Virus genome (UHGV): UHGV-0079970
DNA: 21,378 bases
Strand: one strand, 5' to 3'
Source: a virus
Made by a program: the position numbers and the translations under genes. Of the stretch, positions 2,008 through 12,711 are shown piece after piece. How positions within the stretch are numbered: position 1 is the first letter of the stretch; each line of letters begins with the position of its first letter. The notes under the pieces were generated by a model that did no database searches, was not told the origin of the DNA, and saw only the letters and a list, made by a program, of their open reading frames with translations.

Positions 2008-3057
2008 TCAAACGATTAAATCCTGAACTTCCCTGACTGTCTGCTCAAAACGTCCGGTCTCCAGTTCAACGCCAATCGCACGACGCCCGAGCGCCAGTGC
2101 AGCTTTTACCGTTGAACCTGAGCCCATAAAAAAATCTGCAACCAGGTCTCCCGGACGACTGCTTGCGCTGATTATCTGCTGCAGCATTTCTGCCGGTTTT
2201 TCGCACGGATGTTTCCCGGGATAGAACTGCACCGGTTTATGTGTCCACACATCCGTGTACGGCACCTGCGCCGTCACACCAAAATACCGCCGCAGATGCT
2301 TATATTCACTATGCAGCTCCACATACTGCCGGTTCAGTGACGTATACGTATCCACCAGCTGGTGGTGGGGCTTTTCCAGTTCACCGCGCTGATGTTTCTC
2401 TTCTGCCACCCGGGCAAACAGCGACTGTAATTTCAGATAATCGCTTTCGTTCGGTAGCTGCCACTGACTGGCACTGAACCAGTGCGACACCATGTTTTTC
2501 TTTCCTGTGGCATCTGCAATCTGTTTTGCCGTTATCCCCAGGGCAGCTCGCGCATCACGAAAGTAAGAAATCAGCGGGGCCATCACATGCTGTTTCAGTG
2601 CACTGCCCTTCGCCGCATACCCGGCATCTTTCGGACGATACGGCCCCTGATAATGTTCCGCGAACAGAATGCGCTCTGTGGCGGGGAAATACGCCCGCAG
2701 GCTTTCCTTGTTGCATCCGTTCCAGCGTCCGGACGGCTTCGCCCAGATAATATGGTTCAGCACACTGAAGCGTTCACGCATCATGATTTCGATATCAGAT
2801 GCCAGGCGATGACCACAGAACAGGTAAAGACTTCCGGCAGGTTTCAGCACCCGCCAGAACTGCGCCAGACACTGGTCCAGCCACTTCAGGTAATCATCGT
2901 CGCCCTTCCACTGGTTATCCCAGCCCTCGGGTTTCACTTTAAAGTATGGCGGGTCTGTGACTATAAGATCGACAGAGTTTTCCGGTAAGGTCTGGATAAA
3001 TTCCAGGCAATCAGCGTTGATTAACTCACAACTGGATATTTTTACAGTATTAGCCAT
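2008..3057 (-). CDS. N6-adenine (or N4-cytosine) DNA methyltransferase, beta-class
   Basis: 349-aa ORF; motif IV LIVTDPPYF near the N-terminus and AdoMet motif FFMGSGST near the C-terminus (order typical of beta-class amino-MTases). Confidence 0.8.
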   Translation of the reverse strand: MANTVKISSCELINADCLEFIQTLPENSVDLIVTDPPYFKVKPEGWDNQWKGDDDYLKWLDQCLAQFWRVLKPAGSLYLFCGHRLASDIEIMMRERFSVLNHIIWAKPSGRWNGCNKESLRAYFPATERILFAEHYQGPYRPKDAGYAAKGSALKQHVMAPLISYFRDARAALGITAKQIADATGKKNMVSHWFSASQWQLPNESDYLKLQSLFARVAEEKHQRGELEKPHHQLVDTYTSLNRQYVELHSEYKHLRRYFGVTAQVPYTDVWTHKPVQFYPGKHPCEKPAEMLQQIISASSRPGDLVADFFMGSGSTVKAALALGRRAIGVELETGRFEQTVREVQDLIV

Positions 3058-3193
3058 AGATCAATAAGCACTTCTCTGATAGGCTCATACCGCTTTTGCG
3101 CAAAGCAGATGGGCCTGAGGTTTGCTTGTGACCCCAACGCATGAGCAGATGGCTGGCAGGTGCCGCTAACACCCACCAGCCGCCCATTACCAC

Positions 3194-3221
3194 AAATAAA
3201 AAAGCCTTCACTGAGGAAGGC
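3194..3221 (-). terminator. Rho-independent terminator (minus strand) at the 3' end of the small wHTH gene
   Basis: Minus-strand 6-bp stem GCCTTC / GAAGGC (plus coords 3216-3221 / 3204-3209), 6-nt loop, then TTTTTTATTT; the stop codon of the small ORF lies inside the stem. Confidence 0.5.
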
Positions 3222-3405
3222 GTCTGTAACAACCGAACTGATAATCTGCCAGACCCGCCATAACAAGCTGGGTCAGTATTAACTGGCAACGTTCGCGTGA
3301 AAGGTAAGTATTCTGCGCAATTTCCCCGACGGTCGCCGGTTCGGTGACGCTTAATTCATTAAACACCACTCTGGCAGTTTCGGTCATATCCTGCTGTTTT
3401 AGCAT
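3208..3405 (-). CDS. Small winged-helix-like DNA-binding protein (65 aa), hypothetical regulator
   Basis: ATG at 3405 preceded by AAGGGA; product MLKQQDMTETARVVFNELSVTEPATVGEIAQNTYLSRERCQLILTQLVMAGLADYQ... has a helix-turn-helix-like pattern (VGEIAQNTYLSRERCQLILTQL). The ORF track extends it to 3642, which I consider unlikely. Transcribed divergently from the DUF262 operon. Confidence 0.4.
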   Translation of the reverse strand: MLKQQDMTETARVVFNELSVTEPATVGEIAQNTYLSRERCQLILTQLVMAGLADYQFGCYRRLPQ

Positions 3406-3528
3406 GTCTTTTTCCCTTTTCTGGTTAACGTGACATACCAATAACTCTTGTCTGAAAAGCCAGCAAGCTGAAAGACCGGTATTCGCAACCACCAGCACGT
3501 TTAACGTACTGCGCCGTTTTTCGGACAC

Positions 3529-3548
3529 AAAAAACCGCCTGGCGGCGG
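3529..3548 (-). terminator. Possible minus-strand terminator upstream of the small wHTH gene
   Basis: 5-bp GC stem (plus 3535-3539 CCGCC / 3544-3548 GGCGG), 4-nt loop, followed on the minus strand by T6 (plus 3529-3534 A6). Short stem, so weak. Confidence 0.3.
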
Positions 3549-3597
3549 GTTTAAGCTGTGTGGCGTAGTAACCACTCTTAACACGATATAATATTTT

Positions 3598-3626
3598 TTG
3601 CGTACGCGTTATAGTTTTCTTACAAT
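3598..3626 (+). promoter_or_regulatory. Candidate sigma70 promoter for the DUF262-HEPN operon
   Basis: -35 TTGCGT (3598-3603), 17-bp spacer, -10 TACAAT (3621-3626), in an AT-rich intergenic region; SD AAGGAA (3646-3651) 7 nt before the ATG at 3659. A separate perfect TATAAT at 3587-3592 lacks a -35. Confidence 0.35.
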
Positions 3627-3658
3627 CTATTTCCAACTCCAATTAAAGGAACAGTGAT

Positions 3659-4816
3659 ATGACCACACTCAAAGAACTCAAAGAAGAGCTTGCTCAGATT
3701 CAAGATGAAAACGCGAAAAATAGAAAAAAAGCTGAAATTGCAGCCTTGGTCACTTCTGCCGACAACGAGATTAGGCTTGCTCAGAGAAATATTGGATACA
3801 ACGTACGTGAATGGACCGTTGAATTAATTGTACAAAAGTATGGCAATAATCTTGAAACTGACAAAAACGAACTTTTTATTCCTGATTATCAACGCGATTA
3901 CAAATGGGATATCAAAACAGCCTCTCGATTCATCGAAAGTATATTATTAGATTTTCCAATCCCGTACCTCTACATCTCCGACGTATTTAATGAAGATCCT
4001 GAGTTGGATGGTCGTGTAGAAATTATTGACGGTTCACAAAGGATTCGCTCAATTTACTACTTTTGGAACAATCAGTTTGAATTGAAAGACTTAAAAGAAC
4101 TCAAAAGTTTAGAGGGCTTCAAATTTTCAGATCTTTTGGCTAGCCGCCAGAGGCGATTTTTAAGGGCATCACTAAGATTTATTGAATTGAAAGGTGATGT
4201 TGAGGAGCAACATAGAAGAGATTTATTCGAAAGAATAAATTCAGGTGTTAAGAGACTGGAAGCGATGGAGGTTAGACATGGTTCAGATGCGGCCACTTCA
4301 ATTTTCTATAGGGATGTTGTGACTCCTTGCTCAACAAATCCACTTTTCGCTAGTCTAGCTCCATTATCAGACCGGAAACGTTCGAATGGCGATCATCGTG
4401 AGTTAGTTTTGAGATTTTTTGCATACTTAAATGATTTAGAAAATTATAAGGGTTATGTCGCTCCTTTTATTGACAATTATCTTAATGTTCAGGCCGAAAG
4501 GGTCACACAACAAGATGTAGACAAATTTAAACATGATTTTGAAAGCATGCTTGCTTTTGTAGATGCTCATTTCCCTATGGGGTTTAAAAAGACACCAACA
4601 AGCAAAACCACCCCCCGTGCTAGATACGAAGCCATAGCAGTGGGAACTGCTCTTGCCTTAAAAGCCAATCCACATCTACAGGCTCCGGTTATTCCTGTAG
4701 GAGACTGGCTGTTTGGGGAGGAATTTGAAACCATAGTTACTGCTGATAGTGCCAACAACACCAGCCAACTCAAAAACAGAATATTTTATGTCAAAGATAA
4801 ATTATTAGGAATGTAA
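3659..4816 (+). CDS. DUF262 / ParB-like (GmrSD N-terminal type) domain protein, 385 aa; no recognisable DUF1524/HNH nuclease domain
   Basis: Motifs DYQRDYKW and IIDGSQRIRS (DGQQR-type DUF262 signature), later LFERINSGVKRLEAME; N-terminal ~60-aa coiled-coil-like extension. Strong RBS. AT-rich (~37-41% GC in hand-counted 100-nt samples). Confidence 0.75.
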   Translation: MTTLKELKEELAQIQDENAKNRKKAEIAALVTSADNEIRLAQRNIGYNVREWTVELIVQKYGNNLETDKNELFIPDYQRDYKWDIKTASRFIESILLDFPIPYLYISDVFNEDPELDGRVEIIDGSQRIRSIYYFWNNQFELKDLKELKSLEGFKFSDLLASRQRRFLRASLRFIELKGDVEEQHRRDLFERINSGVKRLEAMEVRHGSDAATSIFYRDVVTPCSTNPLFASLAPLSDRKRSNGDHRELVLRFFAYLNDLENYKGYVAPFIDNYLNVQAERVTQQDVDKFKHDFESMLAFVDAHFPMGFKKTPTSKTTPRARYEAIAVGTALALKANPHLQAPVIPVGDWLFGEEFETIVTADSANNTSQLKNRIFYVKDKLLGM

Positions 4817-4818
4817 CT

Positions 4819-5508
4819 ATGAGTTTGATTGATTTAAGAGATGAATACGAAGAAAGAGCAAGAGATATTATGGAATTGCTTTCTCTTGCGTCATCTTTAG
4901 AGGCTCAGACTCAGCAGTTAGATCAGCAAACGCATAAAGATGAAATAGAATCAAATACCCTTAGGGTTAACATTTTAAAATCATCCGTGCACATGATGCT
5001 GTACAATCAGGTTGAAAACACTGCCAGAGGATGCATTGAGTCAATTTATGACCATTTGCAAGATAATGAAGTAAATTACGCATCACTCAGGGAGAAATTC
5101 CAAGTAAATATCTTGCACCGTATCATTTCAGATAATGAATCGGGAAAATCTCTTTATCAAAAAATTGGTTCCGATATATCTAAAAGGATCATTTCAGCCT
5201 CATTAAACATACGTAAAGAATTCAATGGTAATGTTTGCAAGTCTGTATTGCACAAAATAACACAAGCTTACGGAATAACTGTTGCAAACTCACCAGAGTG
5301 TAGAAATGGTGTTGACTTAGATTTACTTAAAGATATCAGAAATGAGCTGGCACATGGAAGTACCAGCTTTTCTAAAAAAGGTCAAATAGACCCTTTAGAA
5401 GAAGTCAAATCGAGGTCAGAAAGAATTGATCTATATTTGCGTTTATTAATCAACTCAACAGAAAATTATATTACCTCTAACGGGTATTTATCCCCTCAAC
5501 ATGTCTGA
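4819..5508 (+). CDS. HEPN-motif protein (predicted RNase-type effector), 229 aa
   Basis: ATG 2 nt after the upstream stop (translational coupling) with AGGAA SD; canonical R-[N]-x3-H motif RNELAH (5338-5355) in the C-terminal third; rest mostly helical by composition. Confidence 0.6.
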   Translation: MSLIDLRDEYEERARDIMELLSLASSLEAQTQQLDQQTHKDEIESNTLRVNILKSSVHMMLYNQVENTARGCIESIYDHLQDNEVNYASLREKFQVNILHRIISDNESGKSLYQKIGSDISKRIISASLNIRKEFNGNVCKSVLHKITQAYGITVANSPECRNGVDLDLLKDIRNELAHGSTSFSKKGQIDPLEEVKSRSERIDLYLRLLINSTENYITSNGYLSPQHV

Positions 5509-6517
5509 TAAATGTTTCCCCTATTATCTGACCAATTATAGGGGGAACAGCATTTCCAATCATTGTCCCCAATTTTTGGAATGAAAAAGGCGTCTCCTTG
5601 TCAAGGAATTTATAATCCATTGGAAAGGATTGCAAAATCGCAGCTTCACGCAAAGTTATGGCGCGATTTTGCTCAGGATGGCCAAATCGTCCATTTCCAT
5701 ATCCATAACACTGGGTAGTTATCGTAGGGCTAGTATCGTCCCAAACCATCCGTCCATAAACGCTTTTATAGGTAGCACCTGAATTCTTTTTATGACAGTC
5801 TGCTCTAATTTCTTCAGGCCAGTCATCCCACGTACCACCAGGTAAAGAATGCATGATTCGTTTAAGATTGATATCCATCAATTTAGGCGAACGATGCAAG
5901 GGATCGCTTTCCAGCTTCTCACCTGCCCCTACTTTTGGCAACCTACCAATAGCATCCTTAACAGTAACTTTACGGCTAACTTTTTTTTGATCAAGGCTGA
6001 TCGGCCCCAATTGGGAACCAATTAGAATTAATCTACGTCTATTTTGAGGTAAGCCATACTCAGAACATCTTACAACGTCGTACCACAAATGATATCCAAG
6101 AGTCTTTAATGCACTAACAAACCCTTCAAAAACCTTATGGTTTCTAAGTTGAGGAACATTCTCCATCGTCACAAGCTCTGGCATGACATCACTTACAAGC
6201 CTTTGAAACTCATATAACAAACGCCACTTTGTATCGTCTTTACGGCTATTTGGATTACGATACTTGGAAAACGGTTGGCAAGGAGCACATCCAGCAAGCA
6301 ATCTAATATTTCCTTCCTTGAACATAGCAGACACATCGCAGGATTGCAGTTCTGTAACTGACTGATTAATGAACTGCGTTAAAGGATTATTGCTCTCAAT
6401 AGCAAAACGGCAGGATTCATCAATATCAATACCATGAGAAACCTCAATCCCGGCTTTTTTTAGCCCAAAAGTTAAGCCCCCCGCACCACAAAAAATGTCT
6501 ACTGCCTGAATGTTCAC
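5477..6517 (-). CDS. C5-cytosine DNA methyltransferase (Dcm/type II M family), 346 aa
   Basis: Motif I DIFCGAGGLTFG, catalytic PCQ in GCAPCQPFS, ENV, QNRRRL, GNAV. Start is GTG at 6517 with GGAG 6 nt upstream. 3' end overlaps the HEPN gene tail-to-tail by 32 bp. Confidence 0.9.
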   Translation of the reverse strand: MNIQAVDIFCGAGGLTFGLKKAGIEVSHGIDIDESCRFAIESNNPLTQFINQSVTELQSCDVSAMFKEGNIRLLAGCAPCQPFSKYRNPNSRKDDTKWRLLYEFQRLVSDVMPELVTMENVPQLRNHKVFEGFVSALKTLGYHLWYDVVRCSEYGLPQNRRRLILIGSQLGPISLDQKKVSRKVTVKDAIGRLPKVGAGEKLESDPLHRSPKLMDINLKRIMHSLPGGTWDDWPEEIRADCHKKNSGATYKSVYGRMVWDDTSPTITTQCYGYGNGRFGHPEQNRAITLREAAILQSFPMDYKFLDKETPFSFQKLGTMIGNAVPPIIGQIIGETFIRHVEGINTR

Positions 6518-6580
6518 AAGATTCTCCGTTACTTTATCCTGGTATTATATACACATAAAAGTTGGGAAAGTAGAACGATT

Positions 6581-6949
6581 TTACATAGAACTTAAGTCAT
6601 TGTAGTAAATGAAAAATGACAAGCAGCCATCAATAAACCCCATTGCTGTTTGCATCTCTTTCCGTATTGTTCCATCTGAACATTTCCGTTTTTTAGCAAT
6701 AGCGCGTAATGAGATACCAATAACAAAGTGAGCAATGATCAACTCATACTCTTCGGGTTTATACTTTCGCAACCGAGCCACACAACCGTCTATCATGATA
6801 CCTTCGTCATCATCACACTGGAGACGTGACTTTTTACCGTGTGGTAAAAGCCCCTTGAAGCCTGCTGCTATCGGCTGCCAGTCCACACCACTGTTATCTG
6901 CTGCAGCCCAGGCCCCCCAACGATCTAAAACTTCGTACATATCACGCAT
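6581..6949 (-). CDS. Q: Late-gene antiterminator Q-like protein (QuuD/Q-type), 122 aa
   Basis: N-terminus MRDMYEVLDRWGAWAA... and Cys cluster (C-x-D-D-D...GC...CSDG) match what I recall of lambdoid Q/QuuD proteins; lies between replication and late-region genes; start overlaps the upstream stop (TGATG). Confidence 0.65.
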   Translation of the reverse strand: MRDMYEVLDRWGAWAAADNSGVDWQPIAAGFKGLLPHGKKSRLQCDDDEGIMIDGCVARLRKYKPEEYELIIAHFVIGISLRAIAKKRKCSDGTIRKEMQTAMGFIDGCLSFFIYYNDLSSM

Positions 6950-7206
6950 CAGCGCAGTACCTCCTGCACCAGTTTTTCAAACTTACCAACTCTGGTTTCC
7001 AGCTCTGCCACACAATCCACCAGCTCATCCACTGCTTTTTGTGCACGGTGTTTTGCCTGCATCAGTTCCCTGAGCGCTGGCACCATATCCCGACGAATGG
7101 CATCTTTTGTTACACCTGTTTTTTCCAGTTGTTCCGCCTGCCGCAACATTTCCTGTGCCTGTTTACGTAATTGCTCAGGGGTAAAAGTCATTGTCTGGTT
7201 GTTCAA
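6949..7206 (-). CDS. Hypothetical small coiled-coil protein (nin-region position), 85 aa
   Basis: TTG start at 7206 with GGAG 8 nt upstream, overlapping the DnaB-like stop; translationally coupled to Q. Alternative ATG at 7191 has no SD. Confidence 0.45.
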   Translation of the reverse strand: MNNQTMTFTPEQLRKQAQEMLRQAEQLEKTGVTKDAIRRDMVPALRELMQAKHRAQKAVDELVDCVAELETRVGKFEKLVQEVLR

Positions 7207-8603
7207 AAGAAACGCTCCATCTTACTGCTGTCAGTTCGTTTGTTGCTGTATCTGCGCGGCTGGGGCTGTTGCATTGGTGTGGAAAGAACCCGGGCACTCT
7301 CCTGGTCCACAGGCAGAAAATGTCCGTTATGAAAACGCCGGTAAATGGTCCCGAGCGTGCCATTACGCTGTTTCGTGATGTTGATTTCTGCTATGCCTCT
7401 GGCCTGAGTTTCCGGGTTGTATACCTCCTCCCTGTAAAGCATCAGAATGATGTCGGCATCCGCCTCGATTTCCCCGGAGTTTTTCAGGTCCGAGTTCATT
7501 GGGCGTTTATTGGGTCTGGATTCCACGCCACGGGAGAGCTGGCTCAGAGCAATCAGCGGAAAACCGCCGGATTTTGCCAGGCTTTTAAGTCCCTTTGAGA
7601 TTTCCCCCACAGCAAGGTCGTGACGCCCCGTGCTGCGGGTTTTAATCAGGCCGAGGTAATCGACCACAACCAGCGCCGTTTCCGGATGCTTCATCCGGTG
7701 GTGCTTCGTGGTTGCACATATCTCATCAATGGTCAGGTTTGCCTGGTCCACCATCCAGATATTACGCCCCGTCATTCGTCCCACGCCCTGCGAGAAACGC
7801 GCCCAGTCTTCATCTTCAAAACGGGCAACAGACTTAAGACGGGATACCGGCATTCCACCGGCAGCAGACACCATACGTTCACCAATCTGGATGTTCGCCA
7901 TCTCCATGGTGAACAGAAGCACGCCATGCCCCTGCTCAGTCACCTTGTCGATGATGTCCAGCGCAAGTTCGGTTTTCCCCATCGAAGGACGGGCGGCAAT
8001 GAATACCAGGTCTCCGGGCTCCATACCGCCCGTTTTTGCGTCCAGTTCATCAATACCGGTCATCAGCGCCCTGGATTTCTCCAGTCCCTGATTGCGGCAT
8101 TCAACACGGTCGACCACTTCCGGAAGGACATCATCAATGTGAACCGGCTGAATGACGCCCTTTCCGGTCGACAGTGAGGCCATCATGTTCTGCGCATCCT
8201 TCAGGGCATCCTCGGCTGCTTCACAGGTATACGCATCACGTAAATTCTGTAATGCTTCAGTCAGTGTTTTTTCTGCATCACGCAGTGCGGCATTGCGCCG
8301 CAACGCTGCGACATAGTGCTCCAGTGAAGACTTCACCCAGGTTTTGCGTCCGGTGTCGGTAATCACCGGGGCAAGTTCCGGCATCTCATTGCACAGCAGT
8401 ACGGGGTCAATGACGCCGGATATGCGAGCCTGTCTGCAAATCCCCGCGTAAATATCCCGGTACTGACGCACAAAAAATACATCCGCCGGAAGTGTGGCCA
8501 GAATATCCATCACTTCCGGATCGGCCCCACGCAGAAAAAACGCACCGATGACAGCGCCTTCCAGGTCATCGTTACGCCATGCCGGGGTGTTCTGGCTGGT
8601 CAT
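7203..8603 (-). CDS. Replicative DNA helicase, DnaB family (phage-encoded)
   Basis: 466-aa ORF with Walker A ARPSMGKT, Walker B-like LVVVDYLGL and a RecA-like C-terminal domain; follows the DnaC-like gene with overlapping stop/start. Confidence 0.9.
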   Translation of the reverse strand: MTSQNTPAWRNDDLEGAVIGAFFLRGADPEVMDILATLPADVFFVRQYRDIYAGICRQARISGVIDPVLLCNEMPELAPVITDTGRKTWVKSSLEHYVAALRRNAALRDAEKTLTEALQNLRDAYTCEAAEDALKDAQNMMASLSTGKGVIQPVHIDDVLPEVVDRVECRNQGLEKSRALMTGIDELDAKTGGMEPGDLVFIAARPSMGKTELALDIIDKVTEQGHGVLLFTMEMANIQIGERMVSAAGGMPVSRLKSVARFEDEDWARFSQGVGRMTGRNIWMVDQANLTIDEICATTKHHRMKHPETALVVVDYLGLIKTRSTGRHDLAVGEISKGLKSLAKSGGFPLIALSQLSRGVESRPNKRPMNSDLKNSGEIEADADIILMLYREEVYNPETQARGIAEINITKQRNGTLGTIYRRFHNGHFLPVDQESARVLSTPMQQPQPRRYSNKRTDSSKMERFF

Positions 8604-9499
8604 GCGGCAACACCTCCGATACGAGAACGGTAGCTGGGCCAGTTAAACGACAACCAGTTGCGCCCGCCATCGGTGATCCTGTCGGCAATCCGGGGACTGA
8701 TGAACGCCCACAATTCTTCCGGTGAAAGGTTGCTGATCAGGATAGTTGGCAAAATACCCTCATACCGGGCATTGATAATTTCCTGCAAAATGGCCATTTC
8801 AGCCGCACTGCCAAACTGAACGCCGACTTCGTCGACAATCAGCAAATCCAGTGACGCATAATGCTCAATGACGTCATCCGCTGTTTTTTCACTGTCATTC
8901 CGCCAGCAGTTTTTCACAGCCCGGGTAAGGCGCATCACGTCGGTGATCTCCACACTGGCCAGATAGTTACGGATGATGTGTTTTGCCATTGATACCGCCA
9001 GATGATTTTTCCCGGTACCGCAACTGCCGGTCATAACAAGACTGGTACCGTTCTCCAGCATATCTGGCCAGTTCTCCGCATAGCGGCGACAGGCCGCAAG
9101 ATTTCTGGCTGCGTCAGGATTAACCTCCAGATAATTATCAAACTCGCAGTCCCGAAAACGCAGAGCAATTCCGGCGTTATCAGTCAGTTCTTCCGCCTTG
9201 AGGGACGACAGTTCCATGGTCAAATCACTGGCCTCAGCGATCAAGCAGTCAGGGCAGCATGAAATTTTTTCTCTGTCCTCGCCATTACGATCGATCCACA
9301 CCAGTATATGCGTACGATATTTACCGTGTTTTTCGCAATATCCGCGACCTTCACGCATCAGGCAGGAACGATAAGGCCATGGCTTTTCGCCCTTCTGAGC
9401 AAATGCAATCTCTGCCCGTAACTCATCCATTTCTGCCCGTAACTCATCCATTCGCGCCTGTAGTCTTGTTTGTTTCTCACGTTGGTCAATCGTCATCAT
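8600..9499 (-). CDS. DnaC/IstB-like AAA+ helicase loader
   Basis: Walker A GSCGTGKNHLA, Walker B LLIVDEVG. Probable start is ATG at 9499 (GAGG 8 nt upstream) rather than the GTG at 9508 used in the ORF track. Confidence 0.85.
   Translation of the reverse strand: MMTIDQREKQTRLQARMDELRAEMDELRAEIAFAQKGEKPWPYRSCLMREGRGYCEKHGKYRTHILVWIDRNGEDREKISCCPDCLIAEASDLTMELSSLKAEELTDNAGIALRFRDCEFDNYLEVNPDAARNLAACRRYAENWPDMLENGTSLVMTGSCGTGKNHLAVSMAKHIIRNYLASVEITDVMRLTRAVKNCWRNDSEKTADDVIEHYASLDLLIVDEVGVQFGSAAEMAILQEIINARYEGILPTILISNLSPEELWAFISPRIADRITDGGRNWLSFNWPSYRSRIGGVAA
9411..9452. repeat. Perfect 21-bp tandem duplication inside the DnaC-like gene
   Basis: tctgcccgtaactcatccatt occurs twice in tandem (9411-9431, 9432-9452), encoding MDELRAE-MDELRAE in frame on the minus strand. 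Confidence 0.9.
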
Positions 9500-9509
9500 C
9501 GCTGTCACC

Positions 9510-10496
9510 TCAGAATGTCAATTTGTTACTGGATTTACCGAATTTGTCAGACATGGCTCCCAGGCCAGCCAGGACATCGACCTGTCGCTGTCGCCCACCT
9601 CCGTGAGCGGCTGGCTGTTGCCAGTAATCTTCGAAGTGACGATCGGGTCCAAAGAACGTCGCAGCCTGCTTCACGAACTGTGTGCCGGTATTTCCTGTAG
9701 CACGTACCCAGGCGGCATACCGCTTCACGCCATCAAGCATGGTCTCCGGTTTTATTCCCTCCCTGATACGGGCTTTCCAGGCTTTGAAGGCTGCTGACTT
9801 GGAATTGCCACCAGCACGTTTGGGATATTCCTGCCAGGCCTGTTCAAATTCCGGTGAATATTCCTGTCGGGCAGAACGCGCAGACGCGTCAGCGGATGCA
9901 TCAATAGTGTTTTTAGTCTCCGTTGTAATCTCTGTAGTAATCTCTGTATTTGTATCAACATTCGGCGTATCCCCTGTTCCGTTATGACGTCGGGGGGTGT
10001 TCCGTTTTAACGTAATAGCTGTATCGCTGATTGCATTATTGCTGTTACTTTCTGGCGAAACAGAAGAAGGTGTGGTGATGGCCGCAATTGCCTGTGGGTT
10101 GATCCCGACAAACAAAATATTGCTGCATTTCACCCCATCGAGCATTTCCACCGTGCGTAAATCCAGAGTAATAAACCCTGCATCGCGCAGACGCTTCAGC
10201 GCATCTGCGGTTTCCCTTTTCCCGAAACCAAACTGCTCAGCAAACGCCTGGTAGCTTCTTTGCAGTTTGTCGCCCTGAAAACGCTTGCGATATCCCAGCA
10301 ACGCTCCGGTGTGCTCATCCCTGACCTCTGTCGGGCGGTACCAGTAAACGATCTCTGAAAGCAGAGCGATAGCCGTCGCATCCGGACGCCCACTGGGTAG
10401 TCGAATATATTTCCACCAGTTCGCAGGTGTAACATTGCCGGAAATATTAATTTGACCAATAGCCATAACTTCCGGTGTGGGGGCGTAACGGCTCAT
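9510..10496 (-). CDS. Replication initiator, O-like (phage replisome organiser)
   Basis: 328-aa ORF with AAGGAGG RBS, directly upstream of and coupled to the DnaC/DnaB-like genes; N-terminal domain, low-complexity central linker (TNTEITTEITTETKNT) carrying DNA repeats, C-terminal domain. Family call is by position and architecture. Confidence 0.55.
   Translation of the reverse strand: MSRYAPTPEVMAIGQINISGNVTPANWWKYIRLPSGRPDATAIALLSEIVYWYRPTEVRDEHTGALLGYRKRFQGDKLQRSYQAFAEQFGFGKRETADALKRLRDAGFITLDLRTVEMLDGVKCSNILFVGINPQAIAAITTPSSVSPESNSNNAISDTAITLKRNTPRRHNGTGDTPNVDTNTEITTEITTETKNTIDASADASARSARQEYSPEFEQAWQEYPKRAGGNSKSAAFKAWKARIREGIKPETMLDGVKRYAAWVRATGNTGTQFVKQAATFFGPDRHFEDYWQQPAAHGGGRQRQVDVLAGLGAMSDKFGKSSNKLTF
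9911..9956. repeat. Iteron-like short tandem repeats inside the O-like gene (candidate origin)
   Basis: gtaatctctgta repeated in tandem (9925-9936, 9937-9948) with degenerate flanking copies. Lambda ori lies at the equivalent place within O (established knowledge). Confidence 0.35.
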
Positions 10497-11204: not shown

Positions 11205-12052
11205 GGGCGAACCTCCTTGTCAGAACCATTCAGCCTGGAATCAACAAGTGCAGCGCCAAAAACAGCATCACCAACACGGTCGTACAGTTTGCTAGCCAGC
11301 GGAGATTCAACGGCCTTAAGCATTGGATAAAGCTGGCTTGTCCAGATTTGATGGATTTCACGCAAATGCAGGTATACGCCTCTGGCGTTTCGTGCGACAG
11401 CTGACATATCAGACGCATCGGCACCTGATAAACTCTTCTCCATCAGGTTAAAGGCGTTGATGTATGCCTCTTTGAACTGGGCAGCACGTTTACCAGTGAA
11501 GCCCATGGCAAGAAACGCAAAACCGTCGCGGGTGATTTGGTAACAAGGGAGTTTGCGGCCTGATGCGTCGGTGTATTCACTTAACACAAAATTGTGTTCA
11601 GTAAATTCAGCGGAACATTCGAGGTTTCTAATTCTATCTAAAACCCGCTCATGCCGTTTAGTAAAGTAATTAGCTACTGCAAGAGATGTGGTGACAACGC
11701 GACCATTGATAATCGTGATTTCAGGGTGAGATTGGGTTGGGAGAGTAGTCATGGTGACAGCCCCTATGTTGAATTCAATGAACTCACCACCAAGGCTTTC
11801 CACGACCATATAGGTGGTGAGACGTACAGGGGTGGAAATACCGGTCAACATAGAACCCGGCCCAACCGAAGTTGGCCCTGCACGCCCCACCATAATTTGG
11901 GTGTAACGATGCTCATGACACGAAAAAACCGCATGAGCGCGGTTGTGCTCTATATTGAATTTCGGGTTTCCACGCCCGGCACCCGCTTTATAAGGTGCCT
12001 GAGCAGTGTAACGTCCCGGAATTGCAGAATCAATATGCTGGTGGCGGATCAT
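11201..12052 (-). CDS. Rha-family phage regulatory protein with an N-terminal extension, 283 aa
   Basis: C-terminal half has Rha-like motifs (SLAVANYFTKRHERVLDRIRNL ... ITRDGFAFLAMGFTGKRAAQFKEAYINAFNLME); N-terminal ~100 aa (IDSAIPGRYT..APYKAGAG..IMVGRAG) is paralogous to the next gene. GGGAGG RBS. Confidence 0.6.
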   Translation of the reverse strand: MIRHQHIDSAIPGRYTAQAPYKAGAGRGNPKFNIEHNRAHAVFSCHEHRYTQIMVGRAGPTSVGPGSMLTGISTPVRLTTYMVVESLGGEFIEFNIGAVTMTTLPTQSHPEITIINGRVVTTSLAVANYFTKRHERVLDRIRNLECSAEFTEHNFVLSEYTDASGRKLPCYQITRDGFAFLAMGFTGKRAAQFKEAYINAFNLMEKSLSGADASDMSAVARNARGVYLHLREIHQIWTSQLYPMLKAVESPLASKLYDRVGDAVFGAALVDSRLNGSDKEVRP

Positions 12053-12711
12053 AGGTGCACCTCCCGTTGATTACGACGGAACGCGGAGTGACCCTGGACG
12101 GTTTCAGCCTCATGGAATGCTTCAATACAGCTCTCGTAGTACCGCATTGTGCGCAGACTTAACCCAAGCTGAAGCATCATCAGACCATCAAGGGTGATGT
12201 AATAACCACGCAGGGAGTCACCGTAGATGTGATAAGTACCCGGTATGAAATTGCGGGTAAAAAACTCGCGTGAGCAGTTCAGATACTCGATTTTGTCAAC
12301 GATGTTCTGGTGCATGCGCTTGAAATGGCAGGCAACATGCAGGGAGAAAATAACGGCCTTGCCGTTGACGACTTCGATTTTTAGGAATGGGGAAGTTAGG
12401 ACAGTAGCCATGATGGCAGCCTCCGTTGACAGTGAAAAACTTCCACCACCGGAAACGCCAATTTCACTGGTGGTGAACTGGACGGGGTTGGCGTAACCGG
12501 CGTCAACGGAGACCGGCGCACCTTTCGGTGCCCCCGCCCAGCCCACCATAATCTGGATGTGAGCAAATGCGGACGATAAAAAAGACGCTGGCGCGTCATA
12601 CATCGCCGTTGACAATTTCAGGACGCCAATCCCGGCACCCGCTTTATAAGGTGCGGAGACAGTGTAACGTCCCGAAATTGCAGAATCAATATTTGGTCTT
12701 GAAATGATCAT
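12049..12711 (-). CDS. Paralog of the preceding gene, Rha-like (more diverged), 220 aa
   Basis: Aligns along its length with the 11201-12052 product (MIISRPNIDSAISGRYTVSAPYKAGAG ... IMVGWAG ... FSLHVACHFKRMHQNIVDKIEYL ... ITLDGLMMLQLG). No obvious SD at its ATG. Confidence 0.5.
   Translation of the reverse strand: MIISRPNIDSAISGRYTVSAPYKAGAGIGVLKLSTAMYDAPASFLSSAFAHIQIMVGWAGAPKGAPVSVDAGYANPVQFTTSEIGVSGGGSFSLSTEAAIMATVLTSPFLKIEVVNGKAVIFSLHVACHFKRMHQNIVDKIEYLNCSREFFTRNFIPGTYHIYGDSLRGYYITLDGLMMLQLGLSLRTMRYYESCIEAFHEAETVQGHSAFRRNQREVHL

Follow-up and report, generated by a model that had tools for sequence, protein, structure and literature searches.

What does a cytosine methyltransferase do for a prophage that carries it directly behind its antiterminator gene? 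The window analysed here, UHGV virus genome UHGV-0079970 (a stretch of 21,378 nucleotides, taken at its whole length), is a lambdoid prophage of Escherichia coli in which a gene for a C5-cytosine DNA methyltransferase (MTase) follows the antiterminator gene Q and meets, tail to tail, a two-gene operon encoding a DUF262 protein (a ParB-like NTPase) and a HEPN nuclease (Table 1). Two roles had been proposed for this MTase in an initial annotation of the sequence, namely, a protective partner of the DUF262-HEPN module or an orphan anti-restriction enzyme. From sequence comparison and gene order we arrive at the former: the MTase is probably the self-marking, protective half of a restriction-modification (R-M)-like anti-phage system whose other half is DUF262-HEPN.

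Co-occurrence and synteny of the three genes

Among 5,426 complete E. coli genomes the MTase was found in 107 and the DUF262-HEPN pair likewise in 107, at 108 places each, with overlapping accessions appearing in the two listings. Each search split in the same way, into 73 (identity of at least 99%) and 34 that represent a second allele (identity about 91% for the MTase and 85% for DUF262-HEPN); this second allele resides in other prophages with another Q allele, and again directly after Q. Beyond E. coli, searching from HEPN homologues recovered the order DUF262, HEPN, convergent C5 MTase in a Pseudoalteromonas Tn7-like element, a Yersinia lambdoid prophage (after Q) and Salmonella bongori, while searching from MTase homologues (55-63% identity) recovered the trio on an integrase island of Providencia, on a chromosome of Halomonas and in a prophage of Pseudomonas. 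The trio is common in lambdoid prophages of Klebsiella pneumoniae, once more after Q, and for that species the index of the sequence collection lists the DUF262 protein in 761 blocks. The 32-bp convergent overlap between the MTase and HEPN genes that had been reported for the window was verified at its exact coordinates, and comparable overlaps occur elsewhere (32 bp in allele 2, 35 bp in S. bongori and Klebsiella, 38 bp in Yersinia); on this comparison the tail-to-tail junction is not a chance feature.

A species-level scan with a DUF262 alignment yielded 80 loci, 71 of them interpretable for an MTase neighbour (an earlier scan with a HEPN alignment had given no confirmed locus, its patterns being too enterobacterial). 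HEPN came directly after DUF262 in every scanned locus with enough downstream sequence. A C5 MTase of the same clade as that of the window was adjacent in 36 of the 71 loci, convergently in 31 of the 36, at spacings of -64 to +112 bp; these loci include cyanobacteria, planctomycetes and Bacteroidales. Another C5 MTase was present in 6 of the 71. MTase-linked and MTase-less loci formed separate DUF262 clades, and a locus agreed in state with its nearest neighbour in 39 of 44 and 24 of 29 cases. Identity to the window was uninformative as a measure over distant loci, where identities are saturated, and a pairwise Mantel test was used instead: in the linked clade, distances among DUF262 proteins correlate with those among MTases (rho 0.53, a value reached by 0 of 2000 permutations), a correlation partly confounded by species phylogeny.

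Some loci depart from the standard trio. In a Pasteurella multocida P2-like prophage (L017/L018, 5001-8016) an MTase of the same clade (55% identity) is convergent and overlapping with the gene for a HATPase_c_3 protein of 658 aa, which matches SduA_C faintly; this swap is of the pattern expected of a modification subunit, and the protein may be a second effector type acting on the same mark. Distant DUF262-HEPN pairs in a Verrucomicrobiota metagenome-assembled genome (L056) and in Alcanivorax (L058) come directly after a 1400-1480-aa Eco57I/MmeI-type N6 MTase and precede a protein of ~1245 aa (no Pfam match in L056), a layout suggestive of a surrounding BREX-like or type IIG-like system; two more loci (L064 and L066) have partly similar large flanking open reading frames (ORFs), there without Pfam assignment. 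In phage P24B2, which is P2-like, an uncharacterised 381-aa gene is followed by a distant HEPN homologue, with an annotated 234-aa MTase of uncertain relation nearby.

How well would an independent orphan MTase account for the locus? Such an enzyme would methylate phage DNA during lytic growth against host restriction, or alter host expression, and DUF262-HEPN would be unrelated to it. Its place directly after Q, on the early-right strand and with no terminator between, would provide strong lytic expression; DUF262-HEPN pairs do exist without an MTase; and synonymous divergence (dS) between the E. coli alleles, 0.41 for the MTase against 0.8-1.0 for HEPN and DUF262, may point to histories that are separate in part. 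An unrelated gene would hardly, however, have kept its adjacency, mostly convergent, from Enterobacteria to cyanobacteria and planctomycetes, or have kept it outside phages (in a Tn7-like element and in chromosomal islands), where it would be pointless for phage anti-restriction; the E. coli counts also match at 107 genomes each, and the limits of the cassette, given below, take in the MTase. We regard an orphan role as quite unlikely. The MTase does have conserved neighbouring effector genes, where a solitary MTase would have none. Of the two roles in the initial annotation, that of a partner therefore fits far better, given the equal counts (107/107) and a synteny that spans phyla and element types. 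Because this synteny is hard to square with an unrelated anti-restriction gene, we conclude from gene order that the MTase and DUF262-HEPN are parts of one system.

Table 1. Features of the window around the methyltransferase cassette, in order of descending coordinate
Feature	Position	Strand	Evidence or remarks
DnaB-type helicase gene	7203-8603	-	
Small ORF	6949-7206	-	
Antiterminator Q gene, 122 aa	6581-6949	-	PF06530, E 3e-47
Spacer from Q stop to MTase start, 63 bp	6518-6580	-	Holds ribosome-binding site and -10 element; part of the cassette
-10 hexamer TATAAT of presumed MTase promoter	6544-6549	-	Poor -35
MTase Shine-Dalgarno sequence GGAG	6524-6527	-	
C5-cytosine DNA MTase gene, 346 aa, GTG start	5477-6517	-	PF00145, E 9.5e-54
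MTase/HEPN tail-to-tail coding overlap, 32 bp	5477-5508		
HEPN nuclease gene, MAE_28990 family, 229 aa	4819-5508	+	PF18737, E 3.8e-16; PF18735, E 6.7e-8
DUF262/GmrSD_N (ParB-like NTPase) gene, 385 aa, NsnA-like	3659-4816	+	PF03235, E 1e-25
Candidate DUF262-HEPN promoter	3598-3626	+	TTGCGT 3598-3603, 17 nt, TACAAT 3621-3626; ATG at 3659
Conserved block with intrinsic terminator	3525-3611	-	Stem 3548-3535, T-run 3534-3525
N6/N4-type MTase gene, 349 aa	2008-3057		PF01555, E 3e-44

The cargo slot after Q and transcription of the cassette

Prophages with a related Q but other cargo (strains 04-00955 and 5264) delimit the cassette. Their homology to the window breaks off within the 3' end of Q (6627-6633) and resumes only at 3611, so that ~3612-6630 (~3.0 kb) constitutes a cargo unit, comprising the MTase, HEPN and DUF262 genes, the 63-bp spacer, and 47 bp upstream of DUF262. 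The Q proteins of eight loci agree through GFIDGCLS and then differ in their last 5-15 residues; that is, the last ~11 Q codons belong to the cassette junction. The spacer, whose length had been given correctly in the initial annotation, is 95% conserved with allele 2 and is absent from other prophages with related Q genes; the range assigned there to the MTase (5477-6580) does contain the gene, which ends, however, at 6517, the remainder being this spacer. Joint acquisition of the MTase with the DUF262-HEPN operon had also been suggested, and the mapped limits, which enclose the three genes together with the spacer, bear this out.

Other prophages use the same slot for other genes. Phage phiP27 has a GIY-YIG nuclease gene there, strains 04-00955 and 5264 and phage Stx2a_1447 have two or three unknown convergent genes, and in phage Stx2_14040 the slot is empty, the conserved block starting about 40 bp past the Q stop. 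Judged by these alignments, the interval from the 3' end of Q to the terminator block is a cargo hotspot in this lambdoid prophage family. The block is the only sequence (82-110 bp) common to all these prophages whatever their cargo, is about 90% shared, and ends in a strong intrinsic terminator, a stem followed by T6. Rfam matched nothing in either the block or the cassette. We had considered the block as a homologue of the 3' part of StxS/tR' of Shiga toxin (Stx) phages and dropped the idea, since alignment with 933W revealed no homology, only a similar position.

At the edge of the block lies a conserved junction element, TTTTTGCGTACGCGTTA (3595-3611), that includes the palindrome GCGTACGC (3600-3607). 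It supplies a plus-strand -35-like hexamer, TTGCGT, and each different cargo has a -10-like hexamer 17 nt on. The element may serve as a shared outward promoter for any inserted cargo, and on the other strand it could be part of a Q-binding site. The three genes of the cassette differ unequally in dS between the two E. coli alleles (MTase 0.41, HEPN 0.80, DUF262 1.0; 3659-6517 compared with 7147-10008 of the allele-2 locus L002), a hint either of recombination inside the cassette or of two halves with unlike histories.

Each transcription unit has a putative promoter of its own. The minus-strand TATAAT pointed out in the initial annotation is present (the plus strand reads ATTATA at its position), about 25-30 nt 5' of the MTase start, and the same hexamer occurs in both E. 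coli alleles, S. bongori and Yersinia; its equivalent is TGTATAAT in Providencia and a weaker TAGAAT in Halomonas. The -10 is thus kept in four enterobacterial genera despite unrelated upstream context (after Q, after an integrase, or in a chromosomal island), and this conservation makes expression of the MTase in the lysogen plausible. The arrangement of the candidate DUF262-HEPN promoter is found also in allele 2, S. bongori and Yersinia; our consensus promoter scan did not call it (its -35 matches at 3/6 positions). No terminator was predicted between Q and the MTase, so early-right lytic transcription should enter the MTase gene and then run antisense through HEPN and DUF262.

Where, then, does late transcription begin? 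A promoter would not fit beside Q in strain 04-00955, whose last cargo gene has an 8-bp overlap with the Q stop. Comparison of the empty site with the sites that hold cargo places the Q-utilisation, late promoter and terminator unit probably in the conserved block or just upstream of it, 3 kb downstream of the MTase; the MTase would then lie upstream of the late unit, and is likely outside the Q-dependent late operon. The spacer had been described as lacking a pR'/terminator unit, and indeed there is none in it, the shared terminator block being the one 3 kb on. A search of the conserved block for pR' by sigma-70 consensus gave no convincing -35/-10 pair common to all loci. One might still take the TATAAT of the spacer for pR' itself, with the MTase as the first gene of the Q-dependent late transcript, given that the -10 is perfect and that the spot directly after Q is the position of pR' in lambda and 933W. 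We consider this highly improbable: the spacer is specific to the cassette and missing from other prophages with a related Q, the same -10 accompanies the MTase where no Q exists (S. bongori, Providencia, Halomonas), the cargo gene of sister prophages overlaps or abuts the Q stop with no room for a promoter, and the sole sequence common to all is the conserved block, which comes directly after Q in the empty-site phage.

Enzyme, putative sensor and putative effector

Taken as an enzyme, the MTase is a standard, intact C5 MTase, an ordinary result. It matches PF00145 over residues 4-336 with 183.4 bits (cutoff 22) and TIGR00675 with 121.4 bits (cutoff 100.65), and every sequence mark of the C5 MTase family, in profiles and in motifs, is present. 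In an alignment of 21 homologues, with identity down to 54%, motifs I (F9/G11/G13 of FxGxG), IV (P79-C80-Q81), VI (E119-N120-V121), VIII (Q158/R160/R162 of QxRxR), IX (R290-E291) and X (G321-N322-A323-V324-P325) are invariant, the catalytic cysteine being Cys80 in the PCQ motif. Comparison of the two E. coli alleles gives dN/dS ratios of 0.083 (MTase), 0.059 (HEPN) and 0.052 (DUF262), which shows all three genes to be under purifying selection. The enzyme looks active, and methylation to 5-methylcytosine (m5C) is predicted. The segment between motifs VIII and IX, which governs target specificity, is unusually conserved among the 21 homologues, suggesting one fixed target motif for the whole clade. 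That motif could not be inferred from the sources searched: the sequence matches in the PDB span only the catalytic domains of DNMT1 and M.HaeIII, the PADLOC matches of the MTase (MTase_II, DrmMII and DruM) are generic as to target, and the methylome paper on sequence type 131 (ST131) covers N6-methyladenine (m6A) only, without this enzyme. The reading frame includes an A8 tract (T8 on the plus strand, 5981-5988); phase variation at this tract was considered and rejected, all of the 73 allele-1 genomes being intact there.

The DUF262 protein finds its best PADLOC match in NsnA (E 5.6e-46), followed by PD-T4-2_A (E 4.3e-27), and its NTPase motif DGSQR is invariant among homologues. An AlphaFold model (pLDDT 84) matches BrxU, ParB/Noc and the N-domains of SspE, the C-terminal rest being helical; neither the Pfam profiles nor this model revealed a nuclease domain, and PF07510 (DUF1524) gave no match. 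The HEPN protein scores 60.4 bits against PF18737 (cutoff 26.8) and has an Rx4H motif, R174-H179, in which R174, N175 and H179 are invariant in 12 homologues. In sequenced phage and plasmid collections it has no close relative, the only matches being at 32% identity or below. GmrSD_N and HEPN are thus the only partner domains, with no PD-(D/E)XK, HNH, GIY-YIG or PLD domain found by Pfam or PADLOC.

The combination is not without precedent. Anantharaman, Makarova, Burroughs, Koonin and Aravind (2013) predicted, as a table entry from comparative genomics, operons of ParB(DUF262), HEPN(MAE_28990) and a DNA methylase, proposed a link to R-M-type defence, and treated ParB as a DNase with HEPN as back-up RNase (PMC3710099). 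The trio of the window has the same three components side by side, its HEPN protein being of the MAE_28990 family with Rx4H, and so by composition is a member of that operon type predicted in silico. It differs in that its DUF262 protein is without a recognisable nuclease domain; the 2013 work, for its part, did not describe a location in the prophage Q slot, this particular clade of C5 MTases or a sister clade lacking the MTase. We found no experimental study of the trio in the literature searched, and the PADLOC models tried did not recognise it as a system.

Convergent R and M genes are the classical type II R-M arrangement. The trio resembles it in having a C5 MTase with canonical motifs, tail to tail with a putative effector operon, in one mobile unit, and differs in its partner, which is an NTPase-type sensor plus HEPN, with no controller protein and no recognisable restriction endonuclease fold; lacking that fold, it is not a canonical type II R-M system. 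HEPN effectors are usually RNases.

Three experimentally studied groups come closer on the DUF262 side. PD-T4-2 of E. coli ECOR65 (Vassallo et al. 2022) is a two-gene DUF262 and HEPN operon that protects E. coli K-12 from T4; its ORFs span 1.54 kb, and the protective 1.8-kb clone had no MTase (PMC9519451). The DUF262 protein of the window matches the A model, if more weakly than NsnA, and its HEPN protein has no match to the B model at E <= 0.01; the genes of the window are longer and, in E. coli, always linked to the C5 MTase. GmrSD, BrxU and SspE have DUF262 domains and respond to modified DNA, as is inferred for Dazbog, and SspE needs self-modification to act (PMC10952713). These proteins share with ours the ParB-like DUF262 domain with a DGQQR-type motif (DGSQR in the window), and the DUF262 domain of Ssp reads a DNA modification that the system itself makes; they fuse DUF262, however, to a DUF1524 His-Me nuclease that is missing here, and the modification in the window would be m5C, as against the phosphorothioate or (glucosyl-)hydroxymethylcytosine of Ssp, GmrSD and BrxU. 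The absence of DUF1524 sets the trio apart from GmrSD, BrxU and SspE. Menshen (NsnABC) operons, finally, often adjoin methylases (PMC12065111), and NsnA is the best PADLOC match of our DUF262 protein, but the second gene here is HEPN, and since the NsnB ATPase and NsnC effector genes are absent the trio is not Menshen.

In the R-M-like system that we favour, an active m5C MTase would be the modification component of a three-gene mobile module carried between Q and the late block. The MTase would be transcribed in the lysogen from its own weak constitutive promoter, would during lytic growth also be read through from the early-right operon via Q, and would mark the DNA of host and prophage at a single, fixed short motif. 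The DUF262 protein would sense the methylation state of DNA and, on meeting unmarked incoming DNA, activate the HEPN nuclease, so that infection is stopped. The convergent, overlapping layout would couple both transcription units, lytic read-through raising the MTase while running antisense through DUF262-HEPN. The methylation activity and its motif, the DNA state sensed by DUF262, the HEPN substrate and the use of the promoters are all deduced in this scheme from sequences and models, and protection itself (that is, toxicity of the operon without the MTase) we infer.

Several observations weigh against this scheme. No C5 MTase lies within 400 bp in 29 of the 71 DUF262-HEPN loci. At least two of the 29 adjoin Eco57I/MmeI-type N6 MTases, and among 18 neighbouring ORFs that we checked by Pfam at such loci most of the cyanobacterial ones are housekeeping genes; the existence of these loci and their housekeeping neighbours indicate that the lack of an adjacent MTase does not in itself make the pair lethal. 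PD-T4-2 likewise protects from a clone without one. In strain 639 (locus L003, about 9470) the A8 tract is A7, a frameshift in the MTase, while DUF262 and HEPN are annotated as intact; the A7 could be a sequencing error or a rare loss. The consensus promoter scan did not call the TATAAT of the MTase, its -35 being poor, and the Mantel correlation owes part of its strength to species phylogeny, as said. DUF262 proteins, moreover, are known to answer modified rather than unmodified DNA, which is awkward for a simple R-M logic.

This last point could be turned around, such that DUF262 binds m5C-marked self DNA to arm DUF262-HEPN, the MTase being a positive cofactor, as the modification is for SspE, and not an antidote. 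Characterised DUF262 domains sense modified DNA, SspE requiring host phosphorothioate marks and GmrSD and BrxU targeting modified DNA (PMC10952713), and the DUF262 model is closest to BrxU, ParB and SspE. A tolerated MTase frameshift, as in strain 639, would be expected of such licensing, and the conserved synteny of the trio fits it equally well. It accords poorly with a sister clade and with PD-T4-2, which persist or function without a dedicated MTase, and with a convergent MTase/effector layout that is the classical one of type II R-M. We judge licensing of this kind unlikely. Returning to the MTase as a protective self-marker, a more specific form may be put forward tentatively, in which self-marking by m5C is read by a nuclease-less ParB-type NTPase switch and answered by a HEPN RNase, giving an abortive-type, RNA-targeting response. 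Within that form, the MTase-less, PD-T4-2-like sister clade would be a modification-independent or modification-triggered version of the same sensor.

Prophage setting and meaning of the module

The region from 3000 to 7300 of the window is 99.9% identical to chromosomal prophages in many human isolates, several of them labelled O25b:H4-ST131; in strain Ecol_AZ146 the prophage spans from tail genes to an integrase adjoining yecN/cmoA. The minus strand is the direction of the early-right and late genes. The separate adenine MTase that had been reported at 2008-3057 is real, an N6/N4-type enzyme by its PF01555 match, and lies downstream of the terminator, as in Stx phages. In Ecol_AZ146 (locus L001, 19600-20058) this late-operon N6 MTase is a truncated pseudogene fused to a DUF6645 fragment, and in the window it is intact. 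Downstream of it, on the minus strand at 1442-1958, are the small RNA STnc100 (138 bits) and three tRNA genes, a position that matches where Stx phages have tRNAs and then the stx genes. Farther away, within the Rha/ash antirepressor region, two tandem copies of C4 antisense RNA plus isrK occur on the minus strand (11810-12011 and 12466-12667; Rfam E 1e-11 to 1e-15), which looks like a duplicated immunity module of the P1/P7 type in a lambdoid prophage.

The comparison of prophages marks out a cargo slot, bounded by Q and the late promoter block, in one family of lambdoid prophages; different defence-like cassettes are swapped in and out of it, and Stx phages have related backbones. Clinically important Enterobacteria carry the trio widely (in prophages of ST131-type E. 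coli and in K. pneumoniae), and it reaches far beyond them. The MTase alone is ordinary; the trio is moderately interesting as a tractable system for how DUF262 proteins use DNA methylation, and it offers a clean genetic test of self/non-self sensing by DUF262, with m5C as either shield or licence and the MTase-less sister clade as a comparison. If the RNA-targeting form of the scheme is true, DNA self-marking would gate an RNA-targeting, abortive-type response, a putative class of R-M-like immunity.

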